Shown one piece after another: positions 37,420-47,951 of a stretch of DNA of 64,000 nucleotides (position 1 is its first letter; every line of letters starts with the position of its first letter). Location of the stretch: contig DMZH01000001.1 of assembly GCA_003484955.1 (NCBI GenBank), positions 151,848 through 215,847 on the forward strand, written 5' to 3'. The DNA comes from Candidatus Woesebacteria bacterium (GTDB lineage Bacteria; Patescibacteriota; Microgenomatia; UBA8517). The notes beneath the pieces were generated by a model that was not told the DNA's origin, made no database searches, and saw only the letters and a list, made by a program, of their open reading frames with translations. A program made the position numbers and the translations under genes.

Positions 37420-39240
37420 TTACTTGTCAGTATAGGGATTTGTTGCCACCTTAATTACTTCCTGCGGCTTGGTTGTTATAAGTTTGTTTTCGTTATCCGA
37501 GGCAACAATTCTGATTGGTGCGTGGTGAGGTCCGGCAAAGAAAATTCCTTCTCCGACGTTGGCAGCCAGAAGAAGTCTCTTTTCTCCCTGGGAAAGGTAA
37601 AAGACCTCGCCAATCTTATCAATTGCCGCCGGGGATTGTTTCAGGAGGACCTGCATGGCGCTGTTTGTGACTATGGCCTTTCCTATGTCCTGTCCGAGGA
37701 AGTCTTCGACGTCCTGGGTTATCGTAGTGAGTCCCAGATAGTATTTGCGGGCCCTCTTGACAACACTCCACAAAAATTGGGCCGTATCGGGATACCTCAT
37801 CATGTGCCAAGCCTCGTCCACTATTAAAATTCTTTTCTTCAAGTCCTTTTTAACCCTTGTCCAAATATAATCAAGAATTATAAACATGGCGATGGGGCGG
37901 AGTGCGTCCTGCAGATCTTTAACGGAGAAAACAGTAAATGGGTTAGTGATATTAATGTTTGTTTGTTGGTCAAAAATTCCCACAAAACTCCCTTTGACAA
38001 ACTTTTCTATTCTGGCGGCCAGGTCCAAGGCGTCGGGAACCTCCATTCCAATAAGAGTTTTATAAAGATCTTCCATTAAAGGTGGTTCTTTTCCTTGAGT
38101 ATCAGGATCCATAGTTATTCCCTTGGCTTTATAGGTGATGATAAGGGCCCTATCCAAAAGCGCTTCCTGAGTTGGGGTAATTGCTCCCATAATTACTTTC
38201 ATCAGAGAGTGAAGTGAGAGAATTTTAAGTCCAAGCTGGTTTTCTCCTTCTTCTCTGATTTGTGATAAGTCGAAGGGGTTTATTTTTGCGGTTGAGTTGT
38301 ATGAGAAAGAAATATATTCGCCCCCCACGGCTTCAGCAATGGTTTTGTATTCGCTTTCAGGATCAATAACGATTGTTTCTATTCCGACCATGAGGGATCT
38401 AATTGCTTCCAGTTTGACAAAATAAGACTTGCCGGCGCCACTGGTTGCGAAGATTGTCATATTGGCGTTTTGCAGGCTAAATCTATCAAAAATGATAAAA
38501 GACTCGTTTTGGGAATTTATGCCAAAAAGTACGCCGCGGTCGCTTGAAAGCTCGGTCGAGGTTAGAGGAAAAGTGGTGGCAACGGAGGTTGTATCCATGT
38601 TTCTCGTAATGTTTAACCTGTCTATTCCAAAAGGAGCCGTTGCCGTAAAACCCTCGGACATATCAAGTATGGCATGTTTACTGACAATCATCAGGGATCC
38701 GAGTTGGGATTCAACCTGTTTGGTTATTTGGTTAAGCTCTTCGGGGGAGTTGGCGGGAATTGTTATATAAAATCCAAACTCATAAAAACGCTCGATTCCC
38801 TTTACAAGTTGTTCCTGTAGAGCCTGAGCGTCTTCAAGTTTTGCTTGGGTAAAAGGATCAACGATCTTGCCGCGCTCGATATCTGTCGTCATCTCCGCTT
38901 CCATTTCGGCAATTTTGCGTCTTAGATCGTCAAGCACGCTTTTTCCGTCTACAGGATAAATGTAAAAAGAAATGTCAAGTGAAGTATCAATGTTCACGAC
39001 CGGTTCAAGCCATCCGGGTGCAACGAATCTCGGATAACCTCCAACAAAAATAGTTCTGAAGTAGACATCGTTTATTTTTAAATAATCAAAATCTACCTCG
39101 ACAGATTGAGGGGAAATCACATCCAGTAAATTCATTTTTTGATTCATGACTGAAAAAGACGGAGATATAATCTGCGGTTTAGCCTCGGTTTCCTGGGTGG
39201 GAACCGTCGGTTGCTGGCCTTGTTTGTTGTCTGGTTTCAT
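37420..39240 (-). CDS. VirB4/TrbE/CagE-family type IV secretion ATPase
   Basis: 606 aa. Walker A FATSGAGKSYF, Walker B ILIVDEAWHM and a C-terminal GLTTITQD segment. The N-terminal half is collinear with VirB4 N-domains. Confidence 0.8.
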   Translation of the reverse strand: MKPDNKQGQQPTVPTQETEAKPQIISPSFSVMNQKMNLLDVISPQSVEVDFDYLKINDVYFRTIFVGGYPRFVAPGWLEPVVNIDTSLDISFYIYPVDGKSVLDDLRRKIAEMEAEMTTDIERGKIVDPFTQAKLEDAQALQEQLVKGIERFYEFGFYITIPANSPEELNQITKQVESQLGSLMIVSKHAILDMSEGFTATAPFGIDRLNITRNMDTTSVATTFPLTSTELSSDRGVLFGINSQNESFIIFDRFSLQNANMTIFATSGAGKSYFVKLEAIRSLMVGIETIVIDPESEYKTIAEAVGGEYISFSYNSTAKINPFDLSQIREEGENQLGLKILSLHSLMKVIMGAITPTQEALLDRALIITYKAKGITMDPDTQGKEPPLMEDLYKTLIGMEVPDALDLAARIEKFVKGSFVGIFDQQTNINITNPFTVFSVKDLQDALRPIAMFIILDYIWTRVKKDLKKRILIVDEAWHMMRYPDTAQFLWSVVKRARKYYLGLTTITQDVEDFLGQDIGKAIVTNSAMQVLLKQSPAAIDKIGEVFYLSQGEKRLLLAANVGEGIFFAGPHHAPIRIVASDNENKLITTKPQEVIKVATNPYTDK

Positions 39241-39920
39241 TTATTTTCGAGTATTACCTCGGGCTCCTTTTTAACGGCTGGCTTTTCCGGATTGTAAATT
39301 GAATAAAACAAGTTTATAAGCTCGGGAGTTATAAGTTGTTTGAATTTGATTCCAAGTCGTCCCGCCTGACGGATAAGATGATCGCGTCTTGGGTAAAGAG
39401 CAATTTTCGCTTTTTTAATAACATATGATTTAGTAAATGGAAGGGGTCCGGATAGTTTTGTGACTGCGGCTATAGATTTTGCTACCCCAAGCTCAAGTGG
39501 GGACAGATAAAGAACGACAAAAAATCTTTTTCCCAAAACATTTTTCTTTTTAACGGATTCGGTTATAAAGTTTTTATAATCCTGCATGAGCTTTGCAAGA
39601 AGGGGCTGAGTAATCTTTTTTGATTGCTCATCCAGAAAGTTTAGATATGATGAAATATCTTTCTTTTGAGTTAAAACAACAATTTGTACGGAAAAAGTAA
39701 GTGAATTTATCATGGCTGCATAAGCAGCAATTACGGCCTCCTGCTCTTTTTCTGAAAGGAGCCCGAAGTTCAGGGAGGTTGACTCCATGATAAGAGCCGC
39801 TCCGCCATCTTTATAAATAACGATGTCATTGGTAATGTCGGCAACAGGTACAAAATCCTGGGTGGTTGAAGTTAAAGGTTTGTCGGGAATGTTTATAAAT
39901 GGAATTTTGGGTATATTCAT
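39237..39920 (-). CDS. hypothetical T4SS-associated protein (possible split-off VirB4-N-like or accessory)
   Basis: 227 aa, soluble. Translationally coupled to both flanking genes (4-nt overlaps). No enzymatic motif. Confidence 0.3.
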   Translation of the reverse strand: MNIPKIPFINIPDKPLTSTTQDFVPVADITNDIVIYKDGGAALIMESTSLNFGLLSEKEQEAVIAAYAAMINSLTFSVQIVVLTQKKDISSYLNFLDEQSKKITQPLLAKLMQDYKNFITESVKKKNVLGKRFFVVLYLSPLELGVAKSIAAVTKLSGPLPFTKSYVIKKAKIALYPRRDHLIRQAGRLGIKFKQLITPELINLFYSIYNPEKPAVKKEPEVILENK

Positions 39921-40984
39921 TGGTTTGTCAGTATATTTGTCGGTTGTTGCATTGGGACTGCTTGAGTTGTTACAAGTGATCTTCCTTCGACCAGAATCGG
40001 GGGAATAATTTCTCCTTTGGCCTCAAAATTAACGGGCATAAATTGATATCCGTCCTTTTCACTGATAATGCCGTATTGGCCATTATCAAGAGCGGTGACC
40101 GCCATAAAATGTCCGAGTTTGTTGCTTCTAAGAGCTCTAATGGGTCTGCCGTATTCGTCTCTAATCTCAATAATTGCTCCCTCGATGATTCTTCTTGCCT
40201 CGTCAACAACCTGACCCACCACTACGTTGGGATATGTAGGCGGGTTCGGGGGAGTGGCATCAATTGAAAAAATAGCTTCTCTGGTAGAAACTATTTCTTC
40301 TCCGGCAATTGTAGGATTAACATGCTGAGTCTGGATTTGTACTGTTTGAGAAATGGGTTGAATCCTTTCCTCAACAACAAGATGGGTAGTTTGCATGGGG
40401 GTTATTTTGACAGGTGTGCTTACAGGAATCTCCAGTTTCTTGGGAGTAGGGGGGGGTGTTGGAACGGCGGGAGCTTGGACTGTGGCCACAGGAGTGATGG
40501 GACTTTTAATTCCGGCAAACATTCCGGCAAGAGCAGCCAGAAAACCCTGTTCCGCACCTTCCAATTTGGCAAGGGGTCCGGCCATTTGTTTGGCGCTTTC
40601 CAAATAGTTTTTGAGAGCGGCATCTTGGTTTTGATTTCCTTGTTGGGGCGAAATGTTGCTAGTCGCAGTTTCATCTTGAAAAAACTTAGGCATTTCTTTT
40701 GTTTTTTTCCAGTTGAAAATTGTTGGAGAATAGATTGTTTTGAAAAACGACAGAATCCACTGTTCCAGGGGACGCTCCTCAAGAGGTATAAAAGCCATGG
40801 CAGCACCCAAAATTACAGAAACAATTGCAAACGGCCATTTGATTATTCCGATGAGGGGGGAGGAATAAAAAATTAGACCAACCAAAAAACCACCCGCGAG
40901 TTGGAAAAACTGTTTAAGGGTCATATCTCCCACCAATCGGAATTGGTAAGAAGATATATTTTGCGGAATCGGATGTTGTTCCAT
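39917..40984 (-). CDS. PrgI/VirB3-like small-hairpin membrane protein with Pro-rich extension
   Basis: 355 aa. N-terminus has two TM helices (FLVGLIFYSSPLIGIIKWPFAIVSVILGAAMAFIPL) in the position and style of VirB3/PrgI proteins. The middle is Pro/Thr-rich and a C-terminal globular domain follows. Confidence 0.35.
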   Translation of the reverse strand: MEQHPIPQNISSYQFRLVGDMTLKQFFQLAGGFLVGLIFYSSPLIGIIKWPFAIVSVILGAAMAFIPLEERPLEQWILSFFKTIYSPTIFNWKKTKEMPKFFQDETATSNISPQQGNQNQDAALKNYLESAKQMAGPLAKLEGAEQGFLAALAGMFAGIKSPITPVATVQAPAVPTPPPTPKKLEIPVSTPVKITPMQTTHLVVEERIQPISQTVQIQTQHVNPTIAGEEIVSTREAIFSIDATPPNPPTYPNVVVGQVVDEARRIIEGAIIEIRDEYGRPIRALRSNKLGHFMAVTALDNGQYGIISEKDGYQFMPVNFEAKGEIIPPILVEGRSLVTTQAVPMQQPTNILTNQ

Positions 40985-41126
40985 GCTTTTAAGGCAGGGT
41001 GAAGAAAACCAAAAGCAATCTTTTTTGTCTTTACCCTATACTTCTAGGCTACAGCGTGAACGACTGCTTTCAAGTGGTATACTTTTTCACAACAAATAAG
41101 TATTAATCTTTTGCTTCAGGACAATC

Positions 41127-43847
41127 TTGTTATATAATTTGCATATGCCCGACGGTATGTCACCTGAAAATAAACCACAATCAAGCATTGAATTTATGAA
41201 ATCCCTCGGAGGGCCGACTAGGCTTCCTGCAAATGAGATAACAAGTCAGGCTGCAAAAGATTTTCCACAGCCTGAATCAAGAGCAAATGTTCCTGATATT
41301 AGAATGGAATTGAAAAAAAATCAAAATGAGCAAGATAGGGAATACCTTGAAAGGCAGTTATCTTATGAAAGATTTGTTGAAGATGCAGAAGCACGTATTA
41401 ACAGTACAACTTTGCCGTGGGAGGCTAGGATGGCTGTTCGCGATACCGCGTTTCAATTTATTGATGCGCCACCAGGTTTGGGTGACAACTGGGGTGTCCA
41501 AAGGCTATACAATTTTTTGAGTTCTAGGGAATCGGCAATTCAAAAATTAATAGCACCTGAAGCCGCAAAACAAGCCATTGGTTTAGATGAGGAACCTTGG
41601 CGAGACACAAGTCTAATTAATAGACAAGACAGAACCCTATTACTGACGTCTTTAATGGATACAAATAGTATCTCGAAAACCGATGCGGGGAAAATCGTTA
41701 AAGATAGAGAACAAAAAGCAAAAGAAAGGGCCCCGTATTTTTGTGAAGAGCTTTTGAGAAGTAGGGATGAGTTAGCACTTATTAGGAAATTAACTTTTCT
41801 TTGGTGGGGTTGGAGAAATTCGGCTTCAGGTCAAGAAGTGGGCAATTTCTACATGGAAAACAAAATTACATCCTTGCCACAGCCAAAAGATTTTGCAAAA
41901 CTTTTAAAAACCCCCTCGTATTTTATTTCAGGTGAAGAAAAATTGAAGCCTGGTGATGACAGAGAGGCACAGAAATTACCCGGTTATCCAAGTAAGGATA
42001 AAATTGAGAGGTTTCTTACTACTGTAGAAAAAAGATCAAAAGAAAATGAGCCAATGGGGCAAGTAATAGAGAAGGAGATGCGAATAATGTACACAATAGC
42101 CCTGGGTGACCAGCCAGAAAGATTAATGGAGTGGAAATTCAATGCAGAAAGAGGAAAGCTTAATGAAACCCTCGAACAGAAGGGTATAAATTTGGATTAT
42201 TTGATTCTAAGAGACAAAGGAATAAATTATCATGACCCAGTTGAGGATAAAAAAATACAAGATGTTATAAACGCCTTAAACGATTCGGAAAGGGAGGCAA
42301 TAGAAAACGCTTGGTGGAAACAACTTGGTTTTAAAAATGCGGCAGATGGAAAAGAAGTTATAGGCGACCCTGAAATGTGGATTCCTATAAAGGCAAGAAG
42401 GGGGGATCCCAATATTGGCGCAGCGTTACAAGTAGAATCGTTTGACAGAGATGCCAGGAAAGAACAAATTAATGGGGTCTTACTAAGTTTAAAAAAAGAT
42501 TGGCAGGACCTTTCCCCACTAAATAATCATACCCCTGCAGAAACAGAAGCACTTAGAAAAAAAATAAATGAAGAGATTAACAAGCTACGTAGTCTAGCTA
42601 CGGTGTCTGACAAGAACGGTAAATTAATTACAGTTATCCCGTCTCTGCCCCTAGAAAATGAGTTGAAGCTAAGGGGGCGAGCGACCAAACTAGGATGTGT
42701 TTGGGCGAGGGTGCAGTTGGCAGAAGGTAAAGAGGAATTATTTAAGAGGACTCTCCCAGAACTGGCAGGTGGAGACAAACTTGCCTTTGAAATGTCAGAG
42801 GCCGCAATGGGTCTTTTTGGAATACCAGCCAAATGGGGTTATAACATGAGAGATTATGACCCTTCTTCACCCAAGTTTGGCGACAGTGAATGGAAAGTGG
42901 ACGTGGAGGCTTGGCCGTACACTTCGGAATTCCAAAATATTTTGGCACTAGATAAATTTTCCAGGTACAAAGCTGAAGCTTTTGGACCAGATGGATCTAG
43001 AAATAGGTTTGGACCTCTGATGACAGATTATCTTACCGCAAATCTGATTAGGGATTATGACGAAAATGGAAATGAACTTTTTGTAATTTTTGACAAAGAC
43101 GGGAACTTAAGAAAAGGTAGAGCCGATGAGGGCCTTGTCATTGCGGATACCTCAAGAACTATTTTGCAAGAATGGGAAAAAGGAACCTCATTGAGCGAAG
43201 AAAGGTTGTGGAGAGATGTCCAAGAAGATCCTTTTAGACGTTTCTTATTAAGAAGCTTTTTTGCTGAAGGTAAAGCCGCTCTAGGACCCGGTGGAAATGC
43301 TCTGATGGACTTTTGGAGAAAGAAGGAATGGGACTTAGATAGAGACTTTAATGAGAAATTACTTGATGATTATAAATTGGCAAGGAGGGTAGCTTTAAAA
43401 GCCGAGCTTGACAAAGAGGACATATGGAGAGATATCGTTGCTCCAATTGATGATAAATATAAAGCCGATGCGGCAAATTGCCTTACAAGGTTAAGTCAGG
43501 CCAAAGATATAGCCACCAGGCAAGTGATAATGGAAGAATACTCTTCACTATATGCTAAGTGGAATGATGAGAGATGGAAAGAGGTTTTTAATTATGTAGA
43601 CCAAACCTGGTGGAATGGGGTTATGTCGACACGTTCTTGTGTCCAGTGGGGCATCCAGGAAGTCGAAGTTGCAAAAAAAGAAATTGGGGCCCCATTAATT
43701 CTTAATAGACCGAGTAGAGTACTAACAAATTTTGCCAAAAATGCCAAAAGTAGAGGGATCAATTTATTTGGAAAATACAGTATTCCTGTTAAAGATACAC
43801 CATCAGTTATGGAGTCTGCACGTAAAGAATTTGAATCAAAAAATTGA
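41127..43847 (+). CDS. large hypothetical soluble protein on the opposite strand inside the T4SS-like locus
   Basis: 906 aa from a TTG at 41127; the first ATG is at 41145 (MPDGMSPEN...). It has no TM segments or signal peptide, is rich in W/R/E/D, and has no recognisable catalytic motif. Confidence 0.4.
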   Translation: MLYNLHMPDGMSPENKPQSSIEFMKSLGGPTRLPANEITSQAAKDFPQPESRANVPDIRMELKKNQNEQDREYLERQLSYERFVEDAEARINSTTLPWEARMAVRDTAFQFIDAPPGLGDNWGVQRLYNFLSSRESAIQKLIAPEAAKQAIGLDEEPWRDTSLINRQDRTLLLTSLMDTNSISKTDAGKIVKDREQKAKERAPYFCEELLRSRDELALIRKLTFLWWGWRNSASGQEVGNFYMENKITSLPQPKDFAKLLKTPSYFISGEEKLKPGDDREAQKLPGYPSKDKIERFLTTVEKRSKENEPMGQVIEKEMRIMYTIALGDQPERLMEWKFNAERGKLNETLEQKGINLDYLILRDKGINYHDPVEDKKIQDVINALNDSEREAIENAWWKQLGFKNAADGKEVIGDPEMWIPIKARRGDPNIGAALQVESFDRDARKEQINGVLLSLKKDWQDLSPLNNHTPAETEALRKKINEEINKLRSLATVSDKNGKLITVIPSLPLENELKLRGRATKLGCVWARVQLAEGKEELFKRTLPELAGGDKLAFEMSEAAMGLFGIPAKWGYNMRDYDPSSPKFGDSEWKVDVEAWPYTSEFQNILALDKFSRYKAEAFGPDGSRNRFGPLMTDYLTANLIRDYDENGNELFVIFDKDGNLRKGRADEGLVIADTSRTILQEWEKGTSLSEERLWRDVQEDPFRRFLLRSFFAEGKAALGPGGNALMDFWRKKEWDLDRDFNEKLLDDYKLARRVALKAELDKEDIWRDIVAPIDDKYKADAANCLTRLSQAKDIATRQVIMEEYSSLYAKWNDERWKEVFNYVDQTWWNGVMSTRSCVQWGIQEVEVAKKEIGAPLILNRPSRVLTNFAKNAKSRGINLFGKYSIPVKDTPSVMESARKEFESKN

Positions 43848-43855
43848 CCTAATTG

Positions 43856-45454
43856 TTAGTGAGGCGCGACTTTGGATATTGTTGTTCCAGCATTGGATGT
43901 TTGTCTTCCGAATACTTCCGCACTTGCCGCTCGCCCAGACCTCTTATCGTATTGGGTTTGAGTGATTCTACCTTTATTAAGTTGATTTAATAATTGTTTC
44001 TGTCGCTGCTGCGCTGCCCACTCGATTGTTGCGCCACCAGTTCCTGCTATTTGACCAACAGTTCCTGCCGCACGACCAATATCAGTTCCATATTCAAACG
44101 GTTTGCCTGCAAACAGGGATTGAACCAGCTCCACAACCTTTGTTATCTGGCTAAAAACAAAGAAGCTTATAAATACCCAGATAAGTTGTGATTCTCCGCC
44201 GGATGTGCCTATTGAGAATGGAGGATTAAAGCTTGGTGCTGCACCTATTACAGCCTTCATTGGATGAAAAGGTGTGTTTTCTGCCACCTCCATGGGTACA
44301 TTCATGCCTTGTTTTAGGAAGAAAAATGAGAAGAAAATCATGATGACCAAAACCGGGTATACAGCGACATACGACGTTATTTGTTTAAGCCAGCCACCAA
44401 AACCGGATTTGTTGGTAATAGTTCCAAACAGAATTTGTAATGGGCCAAGCACAATCGTTATCATTAACATAGCAAAATTTTTAATCATCACAATAATTAT
44501 TTTGATAGACCACCAAAGGATTGCGAGTATTGAGAGTATTGCAAAAATTACCAGAAGGATACCCGCCCACCATTGTTTTCCGCTATTAGCAACAGAAAGA
44601 ACAGCATTAGCCAGAAAATGCCACCAATATGAATACATAATGCCAAATCCACTATTTCTAGTCAGAAATTGTTCAAACAAATCTGGTGGAGAGTACCCAC
44701 TCAAACCACCCGTGCTTATAATTGTGGCAATAAGTCCAATAACCACGTACATAAGGTCAATAACAAGACCTGCTATGGCATAAGAAAAGGTTATTAAGAT
44801 AAGAGATACGACCAGTTTTGGGATGGCGGACTGAATGGTTATCACGGTTTGGGGATTTATTTTGACCCTGAACATAATCATAAATGCTATTACAATTGTG
44901 GCGAAAACAAGAAGACTGAAACTAATATTTCTTGTAATTTTCCAAAGACGGAGGACTGATTCTCCTGCGTTTAGACCTACACCATCGGCGGCTTTTACTG
45001 TGGTTATGGGGGAAATCTTCTGCGAGAGATCCTTGACATAACCGACTCCAGAAATAGAACCACCGTTTACCGTTTGCATGTAAACCGATGCCAAACTTTG
45101 GCTGTTGGATACGCTAGCACTTGGATTTAAAATTTCTTGCAATTCATTTGGGAGAGCTGTTATACAATTGTCAATTTGTCCTCCCACAACACAGATAAAA
45201 AGGTCAGGATTACCGGGAACAAGATTCAAAATTGTCGAGAATAAACCATACACTACCCACTGGACCTGGGCGGCTGTATAACGTTCTCCAAAAATCTCAC
45301 TTGATGGCGAGGTGTTTGAATCATAAACTTTAGCATACCAATCAATTAGGCCTTGATTATACCAAGTTGCCTGAGCCTTAGCCTGAGAAAGGGGAGCCAA
45401 AGAGAAAAGGAAAGTAGTGCCGATTAGAAAAGATATGAGCAGTTTTTTAAACAT
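43856..45454 (-). CDS. VirB6/TrbL-like polytopic type IV secretion inner-membrane protein
   Basis: 532 aa. Signal peptide (LAPLSQAKAQA), a periplasmic domain of about 170 aa, then 6-7 TM helices and a hydrophilic Q/R/K-rich C-terminal tail. Topology matches VirB6/TrbL; primary sequence is divergent. Confidence 0.5.
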   Translation of the reverse strand: MFKKLLISFLIGTTFLFSLAPLSQAKAQATWYNQGLIDWYAKVYDSNTSPSSEIFGERYTAAQVQWVVYGLFSTILNLVPGNPDLFICVVGGQIDNCITALPNELQEILNPSASVSNSQSLASVYMQTVNGGSISGVGYVKDLSQKISPITTVKAADGVGLNAGESVLRLWKITRNISFSLLVFATIVIAFMIMFRVKINPQTVITIQSAIPKLVVSLILITFSYAIAGLVIDLMYVVIGLIATIISTGGLSGYSPPDLFEQFLTRNSGFGIMYSYWWHFLANAVLSVANSGKQWWAGILLVIFAILSILAILWWSIKIIIVMIKNFAMLMITIVLGPLQILFGTITNKSGFGGWLKQITSYVAVYPVLVIMIFFSFFFLKQGMNVPMEVAENTPFHPMKAVIGAAPSFNPPFSIGTSGGESQLIWVFISFFVFSQITKVVELVQSLFAGKPFEYGTDIGRAAGTVGQIAGTGGATIEWAAQQRQKQLLNQLNKGRITQTQYDKRSGRAASAEVFGRQTSNAGTTISKVAPH

Positions 45455-45487
45455 GGCAGGTGCCTCTAATTGATTATTAGGATAGCA

Positions 45488-47914
45488 TTAATTTGGGTAA
45501 TTAGGTAGTGCTATTCCCGGTGCAATTACGGAATAAATAAAGTTCAAATCGTTCGTATAACTTGATATTTTATCTTTTTCGTTTTGATTTATTGGGGAGC
45601 AGTGTCCAAACCAAAACATTGAAATAAAAGTATTCATATCCTTTTTACCACACTTGGCAGCATATGAACTTGGTAAATTTAAAAAGAAGTCTAGTTGTTT
45701 ACTAAAATTATTAGTCGGTACACTTTGATTACCATGGATACCAAAATCTTCGACAGGATAGTTTACAGCCTCGTAATTACTTGCATCGGATTCATGAATC
45801 CAAATAGCAAGAGCAAATATTGGATTTATATTTTTGCTTTTTGACCTCTGAATAACATCATTATTACATTCTTTGAAGTACGGTTTGCCGGGACCTGTCG
45901 CATACCAGATCTTGGTTATATTTTCCGCCTCGGTTTTATTTAAACCATTCACCGCAATTTCCGGAATGGTTTGATTACAATTTATTTCACCGCCACTGCC
46001 GGTATCTTCATCAGAATTCGGTGCAAAAGAAATAGTGTCACCAAGCCCTTTAGGTCTGAGGGCGGTTTGAATACCATTTAAAAAGTATTCAGAAATTCCT
46101 CCCAGATGAGGAAGTTTTAAATCAGTGTTTGATTGAGAGATATCCGTACCCGAATAATCAATATTAGTAGATCCCGGTATATCTATTATCTGCCCGACGC
46201 TTCCCGCCGTGTTGGTTTTTGGGAAAATTCTCTTGAAAACCGCCATTGGACCCGCCACAAGGCGCGACCAAATATCGTCGGCGAGAGGAATTTTTGAGGT
46301 AGTTGAGAGGTTGATATAAACATCCTTTTTACATTCCTGGGTGGGAGTGGGAACGGATATTGGGCTGGCGTCAGGATAGAGACAATCTGCACGGCATTCG
46401 TTGGGCGCGCCCCCAAAATAGGTACATCTTTCATAACAACCGGTGGGGACAGGGGCGTCAAAAGTACAAGAAAAATTAGCTGTATAGGAAAGATCCCCCG
46501 TCAGCTGTGTGGCAAAAAGATCATCTCCTTTATTTGAACGCACCTCAACGGTATTACAGGAAGTTTCCGATGCAACATTTGTCGGACTCCCTACTTTGCC
46601 TTCTCCTTTTGGAGCATATGTATCTTGCAGGAGAGAACTAAGCTGGTCAGATTCTTCCATGTGGGAGAAAAAGAGAGTAGCGGGATTTTGATTTGAGAAT
46701 GCAATATTTTTTACAATTACATTTGAGTCTGACGTGCCTTGCGCGGATGATACTTGATCGATGGAAATATTTCCTTCGACATCCTCAGTTGAAGAGAGGG
46801 GGATATAGGAAAAAAGATCAGCATATTTATTTGGAACCAAGATGTTGTCAAGGCAAACCAGATAATTGATAGCGGGGACTATTACACAAGTTTTACCCTG
46901 CCATTCGTTGTAATATTTTTTATATTCCAGACTTGTCATTTGACGTGTCGGTTTTGCGAAAGGATCATCACTCCAGGGAAGGGGAGGAGTTCTTTTGTTC
47001 CAGTGGTTTGCAACAGATGTCCTTATGGCATCCTGAATTCCTGCTATGTTTGGAATTAGCGCAGATATTGCATCAATAATTTTATTGGACCCACTATTCC
47101 AAAATGACAAATCTCCATCCCAGGACCCGAGTCGATAGACGTCATTTTGAGCCTTTGTGTTATTGCCTTGATAACAACTGACGGGTTTACTTTTTCCTAA
47201 CCCAAGAACATCTTGAATTCGACCGGCGAATCCTCCTGAACCCTGTTTTGCACAGACAGCGATTTGATTATGATTTGTTTCTCCGACATTATTGATTGTA
47301 TTAATTCTTTGTGCATCTAAAATAATACCGGGAAGAAGTTTTTGGATAGGACCAGATAAATTAATTGTGTTGTAATCTGTGTTTTTAGCCTCTCCGTATT
47401 CTGCACGATTGATAACGCCGTTTAAGTACCAACTGACATATTCATTTGTCTTTTCCGCATCAGTAAGTTTGTCTGTTGGATTTTGAGAGTTAATAACGTC
47501 TTCCGTATTACCCATAAATGGCAGGTCTGCTCCACTCAGATCAATCGTAATTTGGTGACTGGGGACAGAAACGTTGTATGTGCAATAAACTTTACTTCCT
47601 TTTGTAGTGCAATTACCACCTCCTCCTGTGTATGTTTTTTCGATGGTTTCCTTCAAGGTGAGACTGTTTCCGCAAAAAGTTGCTTCACTGGCCGTTTGAG
47701 AAGTGCATTGGGTATTTGCTTGGTATGGACGAAGAGAGTTAAATTCAGTATCGGAAACATTCCCACAGGAGATGTTTGTATTGGCAGGAACTTGGGCATT
47801 TACAGTTCCAATTTCTAATTTCGAATTTCTAATTTCTAATAAAATTACAATTAATAAAATCACAAGAACTAAAAGTTTAAAATTCAAGATTTTAGATTTG
47901 AGATCGAGAATCAT
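45488..47914 (-). CDS. large Cys-rich secreted protein, possibly with C-terminal lysozyme-like/transglycosylase-like domain
   Basis: 808 aa with an N-terminal TM anchor and about 24 Cys in clusters (CTSQTASEATFCGN, CNTVEVRS...CTFDAPVPTGCYERCTYFGGAPNECRADC). The C-terminal segment NPIFALAIWIHESDASNY loosely resembles the catalytic Glu-Ser region of SLT/GH73 peptidoglycan hydrolases; this is a weak call. Confidence 0.35.
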   Translation of the reverse strand: MILDLKSKILNFKLLVLVILLIVILLEIRNSKLEIGTVNAQVPANTNISCGNVSDTEFNSLRPYQANTQCTSQTASEATFCGNSLTLKETIEKTYTGGGGNCTTKGSKVYCTYNVSVPSHQITIDLSGADLPFMGNTEDVINSQNPTDKLTDAEKTNEYVSWYLNGVINRAEYGEAKNTDYNTINLSGPIQKLLPGIILDAQRINTINNVGETNHNQIAVCAKQGSGGFAGRIQDVLGLGKSKPVSCYQGNNTKAQNDVYRLGSWDGDLSFWNSGSNKIIDAISALIPNIAGIQDAIRTSVANHWNKRTPPLPWSDDPFAKPTRQMTSLEYKKYYNEWQGKTCVIVPAINYLVCLDNILVPNKYADLFSYIPLSSTEDVEGNISIDQVSSAQGTSDSNVIVKNIAFSNQNPATLFFSHMEESDQLSSLLQDTYAPKGEGKVGSPTNVASETSCNTVEVRSNKGDDLFATQLTGDLSYTANFSCTFDAPVPTGCYERCTYFGGAPNECRADCLYPDASPISVPTPTQECKKDVYINLSTTSKIPLADDIWSRLVAGPMAVFKRIFPKTNTAGSVGQIIDIPGSTNIDYSGTDISQSNTDLKLPHLGGISEYFLNGIQTALRPKGLGDTISFAPNSDEDTGSGGEINCNQTIPEIAVNGLNKTEAENITKIWYATGPGKPYFKECNNDVIQRSKSKNINPIFALAIWIHESDASNYEAVNYPVEDFGIHGNQSVPTNNFSKQLDFFLNLPSSYAAKCGKKDMNTFISMFWFGHCSPINQNEKDKISSYTNDLNFIYSVIAPGIALPNYPN

Positions 47915-47951
47915 GTCTAATTATTATATCAGTTAAACCTGAGAAGGTTTA

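Follow-up and report, generated by a model that had tools for sequence, protein, structure and literature searches.

Woesebacteria are ultrasmall, probably host-dependent bacteria of the phylum Patescibacteriota. Four publications, in the portions consulted, describe type IV secretion systems (T4SSs) as widespread and chromosomal in Patescibacteria, lacking recognizable relaxase or coupling proteins, and essential in S. epibionticum, the sole species tested (PMC10633639, PMC11665869, PMC12102498, PMC12857230). Within those portions, reviews call the role of these systems "completely unknown" (PMC11665869, PMC10633639, PMC12102498), and effector export is speculated upon with no substrate named (PMC11665869, PMC10633639, PMC12857230). 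A T4SS beside dnaA, arrays of pilin genes, and an apparent scarcity of VirB6 in Microgenomatia have already been published (PMC12102498, consulted in part). Here we analyze a 64,000-nucleotide stretch of a Candidatus Woesebacteria genome (contig DMZH01000001.1, positions 151,848 to 215,847; hereafter, the window), in which a T4SS-like locus contains a single plus-strand gene, encoding a large soluble protein that we call X900. The position of this gene within the locus is termed the slot, and its occupants are termed slot proteins. The best explanation of X900 is that Woesebacteria devote a polymorphic slot protein to their chromosomal T4SS and that X900 is the allele present in this genome. 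What is new here is the exchangeable-cassette behavior of the slot protein, combined with a constant N-terminal peptide; no mention of this protein was found in the sections of the Patescibacteria T4SS literature that were searched.

Results

A single gene at a fixed position in related loci

With the PrgI-like protein of the window as the query, 80 metagenomic and 79 GTDB loci were retrieved (numbered with the prefix L), and slot occupancy was judged in the Woesebacteria-type loci with enough flanking sequence (about 50 metagenomic loci and about 35 from GTDB genomes). Every such locus contained exactly one soluble slot open reading frame (ORF) of about 470 to 1,120 amino acids (aa), which diverges from the PrgI-like gene and converges, within a few nucleotides (nt), with the gene for a polytopic protein of ~520 to 600 aa. 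The left part of the shared layout comprises rnpA-yidD, dnaA and dnaN, followed on the minus strand by a small gene, a gene for a membrane protein of 620 to 970 aa, and the VirB4, TrsD-like, and PrgI-like genes; the right part comprises the large soluble protein on the plus strand, the ~560-aa polytopic protein, a ~790-aa protein, and the pilin array on the minus strand, and a SpoIID-domain protein on the plus strand. The slot lies beside dnaA-dnaN in L001, L002, L003, and L006, and it is occupied across loci down to ~42% overall identity of the PrgI-like protein. In Shapirobacteria-type loci (about 33 to 38% identity), the slot arrangement is absent upstream of PrgI; in L162, one of these loci, genes for a transporter and a 5'-3' exonuclease take its place.

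Because the slot is filled in every inspectable Woesebacteria-type locus, the functional link to the T4SS that the original prediction drew from the position of X900 is strongly supported. Near relatives do lack family A, the family to which X900 belongs, and such an absence from syntenic loci was to count against the link; but an analogous protein fills the slot in these relatives, which makes the slot indispensable and family A dispensable. Members of family A were met only in the slot position in the loci inspected.

Replacement of the slot body between close relatives

The features that bear on the replacement are, in window coordinates:

41145-43847, plus strand, X900 coding sequence (family A slot protein), 900 aa, stop codon included
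41145-41306, plus strand, N-terminal module, codons 1 to 54 (MPDGMSPENKPQSS..FMKSLG..AAKDFPQPESRANVPDIRM), disordered in the structural model and common to unrelated bodies
41307-43844, plus strand, exchangeable alpha-helical body of ~846 aa, an orphan fold with no sequence or fold match
41307-45256, no strand, segment without DNA homology to close relatives (blastn), comprising the X900 body and most of the VirB6-like gene
43856-45454, minus strand, VirB6-like protein, 532 aa, polytopic, named from position and topology; convergent with X900

The close relative L006/L008, which lies on the same contig as L010 and is similar to L009, matches the window at 92.5% nucleotide identity over 38203-41306 and at 90.8% over 45257-46296 (blastn). 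Homology to L006/L008 and to L003 (Microgenomates GW2011_GWC1_41_20) ends at 41306/41312 and resumes at 45257/45237, the left boundary in L003 being the same as that in L006/L008. At the protein level, L009/L010 and the window are 95% identical in the PrgI-like protein, 97% in the TrsD-like protein, and 36% in the VirB6-like protein, and their slot proteins match over residues 1 to 74 only. The slot protein of L009 belongs to a second family, family B, and the profiles of families A and B share similarity in their N-terminal ~75 columns only (hhalign). Two further pairs, L065/L068 and L032/L048, have flanks that are 84 to 94% identical and lose homology over the slot body together with the last ~50 codons of the VirB6-like gene.

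The 73 nonredundant slot proteins fall into 14 BLAST clusters, which hhalign arranges into at least five unlinked superfamilies (23 proteins in the window family with d0; 18 in family B with d6 and d8; 15 in d1; 6 in d3; 5 in d4; and singletons). Ten slot proteins that represent seven of the first 11 BLAST clusters had no Pfam domain, eight slot proteins had no match in PADLOC, and the representatives of other slot families searched against PHROGs had none. The distribution of slot allele types does not follow the similarity of the flanks, and in the comparison of the window with L036, conservation of the slot protein is about equal to that of the PrgI-like protein. Since divergence within a family is ordinary (ratio of nonsynonymous to synonymous differences per site [pN/pS], 0.22 to 0.49), the diversity of the slot reflects replacement among old allele classes rather than fast drift.

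An N-terminal module common to unrelated bodies

Codons 1 to 54 of X900 stop exactly where DNA homology stops, and families A and B match in this module only, by BLASTP as well as by hhalign. Residues 1 to 54 are common to families A and B and to part of d0. The modules of the window (family A) and of L009 (family B) differ by one amino acid change, with a pN of 0.01 and a pS of 0.43, which indicates that constraint acts on the N-terminal peptide. The motifs MPDxMSPEN, S-x-x-x-hydrophobic-[KR]-x-LG, and PE[SW][KR]xNxPD[IV]R[ML] recur on bodies of three BLAST clusters; PD[IV]R[ML] itself is found in 10 of the 73 slot proteins, in no case beyond residue 113, and not once in 45,787 body residues. 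The L065/L068 lineage has an N terminus of its own, held in common on differing bodies. As judged from these alignments, the N-terminal module is shown to follow the lineage of the machine and not the family of the body.

The coding region of the module also contains a 13-bp inverted repeat (41246-41275), flagged as resembling a terminator of the minus strand. The hairpin is weakened by substitutions in both L009 and L016 and is probably not a conserved element.

X900 and its family

Family A, as defined here, consists of 18 full-length, unannotated homologues (P0001 to P0018), the first of which is 100% identical to X900 and has the same 900-aa length. X900 belongs to this family by full-length similarity and by its motifs: it is 40 to 72% identical to the 17 other members over at least 89% of its length, with 119 invariant columns, and it contains EAWPYTSEFQN, GPDGSRxRFGPLMTDY, and EDPFRRFLLRSFFAEGK. 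A search of 1.84 billion representative proteins with the family profile returned 22 matches only, and a scan derived from that profile found no match in 185,579 GTDB species genomes. X900 has no match in Pfam, NCBIfam, PADLOC, or PHROGs or, as a single sequence and as a family profile, among the sequences of the PDB, and the 64-kb window holds neither a paralogue of X900 nor a second copy of the module.

The AlphaFold2 model of X900, built from the family alignment, is mostly alpha-helical with few hairpins (predicted local distance difference test [pLDDT], 75.6; predicted template modeling score [pTM], 0.77). Residues 1 to 58 have a pLDDT below 50 and are predicted to be disordered; blocks 566 to 625 and 700 to 717, among the most conserved of the protein, are also modeled at low confidence. 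The best Foldseek matches to the model had E values of 0.27 (PDB) and 0.014 (BFVD) with TM-scores of ~0.1, and none passed an E value of 0.001; the top BFVD matches, tape-measure and minor tail proteins, reflect generic long-helix similarity only. The family B model (pLDDT, 80; pTM, 0.79) is likewise alpha-rich with a disordered N terminus of ~80 residues, and none of its PDB matches passed an E value of 0.001 (Foldseek, TM-scores of ~0.1). The search for remote homologues that the original prediction had proposed turned up no match to X900 in the domain, PDB, and fold databases searched. Conserved residues in the superfamily of family A and d0 are G, W, R, and A only; with no conserved set of catalytic-type residues, an enzyme or toxin identity was dropped.

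Most of what had been read from the X900 sequence alone is borne out. Its 900 residues are rich in W (2.8%), E (9.3%), D (7.3%), and R (7.1%), with little H (0.2%) or C (0.4%), and the motifs WWGWRN and WWNGVMSTRSCVQWG are both present. No 19-residue hydrophobic window scores as a transmembrane (TM) segment, and hydrophobicity windows, with no dedicated signal-peptide predictor run, revealed no hydrophobic N terminus or anchor segment. Neither a Walker A motif nor, in Pfam and NCBIfam, a relaxase match was found. GC content (0.401), GC content at third codon positions (GC3; 0.332), and relative synonymous codon usage (RSCU; correlation of 0.78) are all typical of window genes, so that a foreign origin, which the original prediction had left to such a comparison, was dropped. 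In comparisons of X900 with family members, pN/pS ranges from 0.22 to 0.49 at saturated synonymous sites, the mark of purifying selection on a real gene under constraint.

Start codon and promoter

The ORF at 41127-43847 on the plus strand has 906 codons when counted from TTG 41127, as originally predicted. The ORF is real; its start and length are not, since the true start is most likely ATG 41145, which yields a protein of 900 aa. The "LLYNLH" extension that follows from the TTG start is a translated promoter box:

41133-41138, plus strand, -10-like box TATAAT, read from the sequence, 6 nt before ATG 41145

An in-frame TAnAAT-N4-9-ATG layout occurs in 41 of 52 slot ORFs, drawn from all clusters and many with a TGn extended -10 element, as opposed to about two cases expected by chance (a rough estimate). 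By sigma-70 promoter geometry, this placement suggests that X900 has a promoter of its own and that its mRNA has little or no leader. A generic promoter scan did not list the box owing to its weak -35 element.

The convergent VirB6-like gene

The original prediction of a VirB6-like neighbor holds for position and polytopic topology, the protein having a signal-peptide-like N terminus and six more hydrophobic windows, but not for homology, as no match was found in Pfam, in NCBIfam, or with PDB profiles. Its identity to all four counterparts compared, the closest relative included, is only 31 to 37%. In published profile searches, VirB6 appears "scarce" in Microgenomatia (PMC12102498, consulted in part), which may follow from the allelic state of this gene, with ~35% identity between near relatives. 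Residues 27 to 66 (TWYNQ..EIFGERYTAAQVQW), extracytoplasmic and located after the signal peptide, contain 22 invariant columns among 12 diverse loci (columns 27, 31-32, 34, 39, 42-44, 53-64, and 66), and the TM region at 171 to 240 is conserved too.

A gap of 8 nt, which holds no terminator-like hairpin, separates the stop codons of the slot gene (43847) and the VirB6-like gene (43856); elsewhere, the two genes likewise lie a few nucleotides apart or overlap (by 4 nt in L040). Given such a gap and the lack of a hairpin in the window, the convergent transcripts must overlap or collide.

Slot type is independent of VirB6-like type. The BLAST score ratio (BSR) of L065 and L068 is 0.71 for the VirB6-like protein and about 0 for the slot protein, and that of the window and L036 is 0.26 and 0.58, respectively. 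An allele-matched pairing of the two proteins was therefore dropped. Similarity of the VirB6-like tail tracks the slot cluster weakly, a relationship confounded by physical linkage and phylogeny.

The surrounding T4SS locus

The remaining annotated genes of the locus are the following:

31271-33950, dnaA and dnaN (dnaA, 31271-32632), directly upstream of the T4SS block
37420-39240, minus strand, VirB4 ATPase core, 606 aa (Pfam P-loop_TraG, E value of 1.9e-27)
39237-39920, minus strand, TrsD/VirB4-N-like gene, 227 aa (NCBIfam TrsD and VirB4_plasma matches)
39917-40984, minus strand, PrgI (VirB3-like) gene, divergent from X900 (Pfam PF12666, E value of 1.6e-6, 29 bits against a cutoff of 27)
47952-48233 and 48288-48632, minus strand, two T4SS_pilin genes (PF18895)
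48647-51009, minus strand, small two-TM genes forming the rest of the array, pilin-like by topology alone

These matches establish the neighbors as T4SS genes, and X900 is indeed, as first noted, the only plus-strand gene in the ~17-kb minus-strand block (33953-51009), which it cuts in two. No type IV coupling protein (T4CP) was detected among the window proteins scanned.

VirB4 is split in two (37420-39920), with the 227-aa and 606-aa coding regions overlapping by 4 nt (39237-39240), and the two-part form is present in all related loci. The pilin array consists of eight small genes in tandem on the minus strand (47952-51009), all of which have a predicted pair of TM helices and a loop resembling G-G-D/S-x-K; the Pfam scan took in two of these genes only, and both are T4SS_pilin. 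Arrays of this kind are likewise found in L001 to L003 and have been reported for Microgenomatia (PMC12102498, in the portion consulted). The cumulative GC skew reaches its minimum at ~30 to 31 kb, beside dnaA/dnaN, consistent with a replication origin that adjoins the T4SS locus. The gene at 34531-37383 (minus strand), which closes the VirB4 operon at its far end, encodes a mosaic, hypervariable protein of 950 aa with three TM segments in its middle; compared with L003, in which VirB4 is 95% identical, only residues 1 to 210 and 483 to 790 align, at ~50% identity. This protein has no Pfam domain and no PHROGs match, and its only NCBIfam match is subthreshold (15.9 bits against a cutoff of 1,737).

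In two loci, an extra minus-strand gene lies between the PrgI-like and slot genes (L003, 8810-9904, 364 aa; L002, 9390-9917, 175 aa); neither has a Pfam match, and the window has no such gene. Two other loci (L056, 8050-9468; L073, 4567-5829) have an ORF of 420 to 472 aa with the motif GGIRFHP between these genes or in place of the expected neighbor, which we take to resemble Glu/Leu/Phe/Val-type amino acid dehydrogenases. Many GTDB records with a Woesebacteria-type locus (L090-L092, L096, L100, L102, L104-L106, L130, and others) have titles such as "uncultured Gammaproteobacteria," "Alphaproteobacteria," or "Bathyarchaeia archaeon," which are probably placeholder or wrong taxonomy labels of metagenome-assembled genomes.

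Discussion

The slot protein is a putative exported or host-facing specificity module of the T4SS, a reading that we hold tentatively and at somewhat less than an even chance. The N-terminal peptide would dock to, or be recognized by, the conserved machine components on the cytoplasmic side (VirB4, TrsD, and PrgI), and the slot protein, which has neither a Sec signal nor a TM segment, would be handed to the T4SS and then exported. At the host cell or inside it, the alpha-helical body would serve for binding or as a scaffold, rather than as an enzyme, and would in this way determine host specificity, and alleles would be exchanged by recombination at the junction of module and body, driven by host diversity or host defense. 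The candidate translocated substrate of the original prediction gains indirect support, we infer, from the replacement of bodies behind an N-terminal peptide of 54 residues that purifying selection preserves. The more specific proposal that slot proteins are substrates of Patescibacteria-type T4SSs, acting as exchangeable host-specific alpha-helical modules that are delivered onto or into the host and recognized via the disordered N-terminal peptide, is possible though rather unlikely.

Several points weigh against an exported role. Known T4SS substrates usually signal by C-terminal or internal sequence, not by an N-terminal one. The C-terminal signal that the original prediction proposed to look for is not common to slot alleles: over the final 40 residues, slot proteins have net charges between -6 and +7, two short dehydrogenase-like ORFs being left out, and family A members between +4 and +6, and no motif is common to them. 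The recognizable N-terminal module is confined to the sub-clade nearest the window, and distant loci have in common little more than M-[PATS]-[ED] and a disordered start rich in G, P, and N. At the 5' end, some of the conservation lies at the nucleotide level, since the first 42 nt of the gene (41145-41186) show a single difference among the window, L009, and L016, synonymous sites included, unlike the PrgI-like gene, in which synonymous sites are saturated in the comparison with L016; a constraint from a leaderless mRNA could account for this. One occupant per locus fits an obligatory part of the machine equally well. Finally, none of these organisms has been cultured, and their dependence on a host is an assumption based on the phylum to which they belong.

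The main alternative is a cytoplasmic accessory subunit. Such a protein might receive substrates or guard their entry in place of the missing coupling protein, or it might regulate the VirB6-like channel or act as a chaperone in its assembly, with the N-terminal peptide as its tether and with a diversity that stems from co-evolution with variable machine parts or from escape from host or phage inhibitors. The presence of exactly one copy at a fixed position in every locus would suit such a subunit, as would the lack of a detected T4CP among the window proteins scanned and the tail-to-tail arrangement, across 8 nt, with a hypervariable VirB6-like gene, the last ~50 codons of which were exchanged along with the slot body in two pairs; the weak and confounded tracking of slot cluster by VirB6-like tail similarity points the same way. 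However, the cytoplasmic core parts are 95 to 97% identical where slot proteins are unrelated, slot and VirB6-like types assort independently (L065/L068 and the window/L036), and at least five unrelated superfamilies for one structural job in a conserved machine would be unusual, all of which makes an accessory subunit unlikely.

Less probable still is that the slot protein determines kin discrimination, exclusion, or incompatibility between Woesebacteria cells, its alleles being under balancing selection, in the manner of TraG-Eex exclusion by conjugative elements or of polymorphic toxin-immunity pairs. In the F and SXT/R391 systems, exclusion specificity resides in TraG, of the VirB6 family, and the slot has deeply diverged allele classes whose distribution does not follow the phylogeny of the flanks, next to a VirB6-like protein that is itself allelic (31 to 37% identity whatever the relatedness). 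These alleles are not matched to those of the slot, though, and no immunity-like ORF adjoins X900, which has 8 nt to the convergent gene on one side and a 160-nt promoter region upstream; nor do the alleles scanned in Pfam and PADLOC contain a toxin domain, and there are no conserved catalytic residues. It is also most improbable that the slot gene is unrelated cargo or a selfish gene inserted by chance, the alternative allowed in the original prediction and suggested by its opposite strand, its own promoter, and its lack of T4SS homology. A fixed site beside dnaA-dnaN, always filled by a single-copy occupant in loci down to ~42% PrgI-like identity, together with native GC content and codon usage, leads us to reject it; called neighbors show no integrase, repeat, or tRNA hallmarks, and family A is found in the slot only.

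The putative export module thus provides a concrete candidate for T4SS export, with an N-terminal peptide, alleles, and a module-machine interaction that are open to study. If slot proteins are substrates recognized through the N-terminal peptide, this peptide would be a targeting signal of a type new to T4SSs, and the exchange of cassettes would let episymbionts switch or track hosts; if the slot protein is an internal part of the machine instead, it would still be unusual for several unrelated families to occupy one structural position. According to a 2026 preprint (PMC13622651), Actinobacteria that serve as hosts detect and combat their epibionts. Epibiont proteins that face the host could therefore plausibly be selected for diversity, with no direct bearing on the slot protein.

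Comparison with known systems

When X900 is compared with the usual components of such loci, it resembles none of them. It has no Walker A motif, TM segment, or AAA or TraG Pfam match that would identify a VirD4/TcpA coupling protein, and the scarcity of histidine (0.2%) and the lack of a relaxase match in Pfam and NCBIfam set it apart from conjugative relaxases. It lacks the hydrophobic N terminus or anchor, as well as any adhesin domain in Pfam, of a PrgB-like surface adhesin, and a Foldseek match to enterococcal PrgA (E value of 5.9; TM-score of 0.05) is meaningless. As in T4SS effectors, linkage is consistent, with the slot always between the PrgI/VirB4 and VirB6-like/pilin operons; of the known effector signals (C-terminal Arg-rich or E-block, BID, XVIPCD, and relaxase translocation signal [TS]), none is apparent, as no Pfam or NCBIfam domain and no common C-terminal motif were found.

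The CagA protein of Helicobacter pylori is similarly a large, soluble, mostly alpha-helical protein of orphan fold that is encoded inside a T4SS locus (the cag island) and has strain-level allelic diversity. There is no sequence or fold similarity between CagA and the slot protein (no Foldseek PDB match), and the two differ in how they vary and how they are recognized: CagA varies mainly in its C-terminal repeats and relies on C-terminal and internal signals and on the chaperone CagF, whereas the slot protein varies by replacement of the whole body.

Polymorphic toxin and effector systems, such as CdiA-CT of contact-dependent inhibition (CDI), LXG proteins of type VII secretion systems (T7SSs), and Rhs/PAAR cargo of type VI secretion systems (T6SSs), offer a closer architectural parallel. 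Slot proteins, like these, have a constant, machine-linked N terminus followed by variable, unrelated, and exchangeable bodies, with recombination at the junction and alleles scattered across close relatives. In the slot protein, however, the constant part amounts to ~54 disordered residues and the variable part to ~850 aa; there is no recognizable toxin domain (Pfam, ten representatives; PADLOC, eight slot proteins) or set of conserved catalytic-type residues; and no immunity gene adjoins the slot gene, the 8-nt gap downstream of X900 containing no small ORF. The literature searched contains no description of a constant N terminus with swapped bodies in a monoderm-type T4SS.

The receptor-binding proteins of phage tail fibers and tailocins show the same division of labor along the chain, in that the N-terminal attachment segment follows the lineage of the machine and the distal body is swapped horizontally, with one fixed slot per locus. 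Their swapped body sets target specificity, a role that is only inferred for the slot protein here. Phage fibers are beta-rich trimers, often with a downstream chaperone gene, whereas the slot body is globular and alpha-helical.

Variable T4SS parts beside a conserved ATPase core are also known from the Trw pilin arrays of Bartonella and the VirB2/VirB6 paralogues of Anaplasma. In those systems, the variable parts are membrane or pilus subunits that arose by paralogue amplification, in contrast to the soluble protein of the slot, which has no signal peptide and comes from unrelated families. The locus in the window nonetheless shares with the Bartonella and Anaplasma cases a tandem pilin array and a hypervariable VirB6-like gene (PMC12102498, consulted in part).

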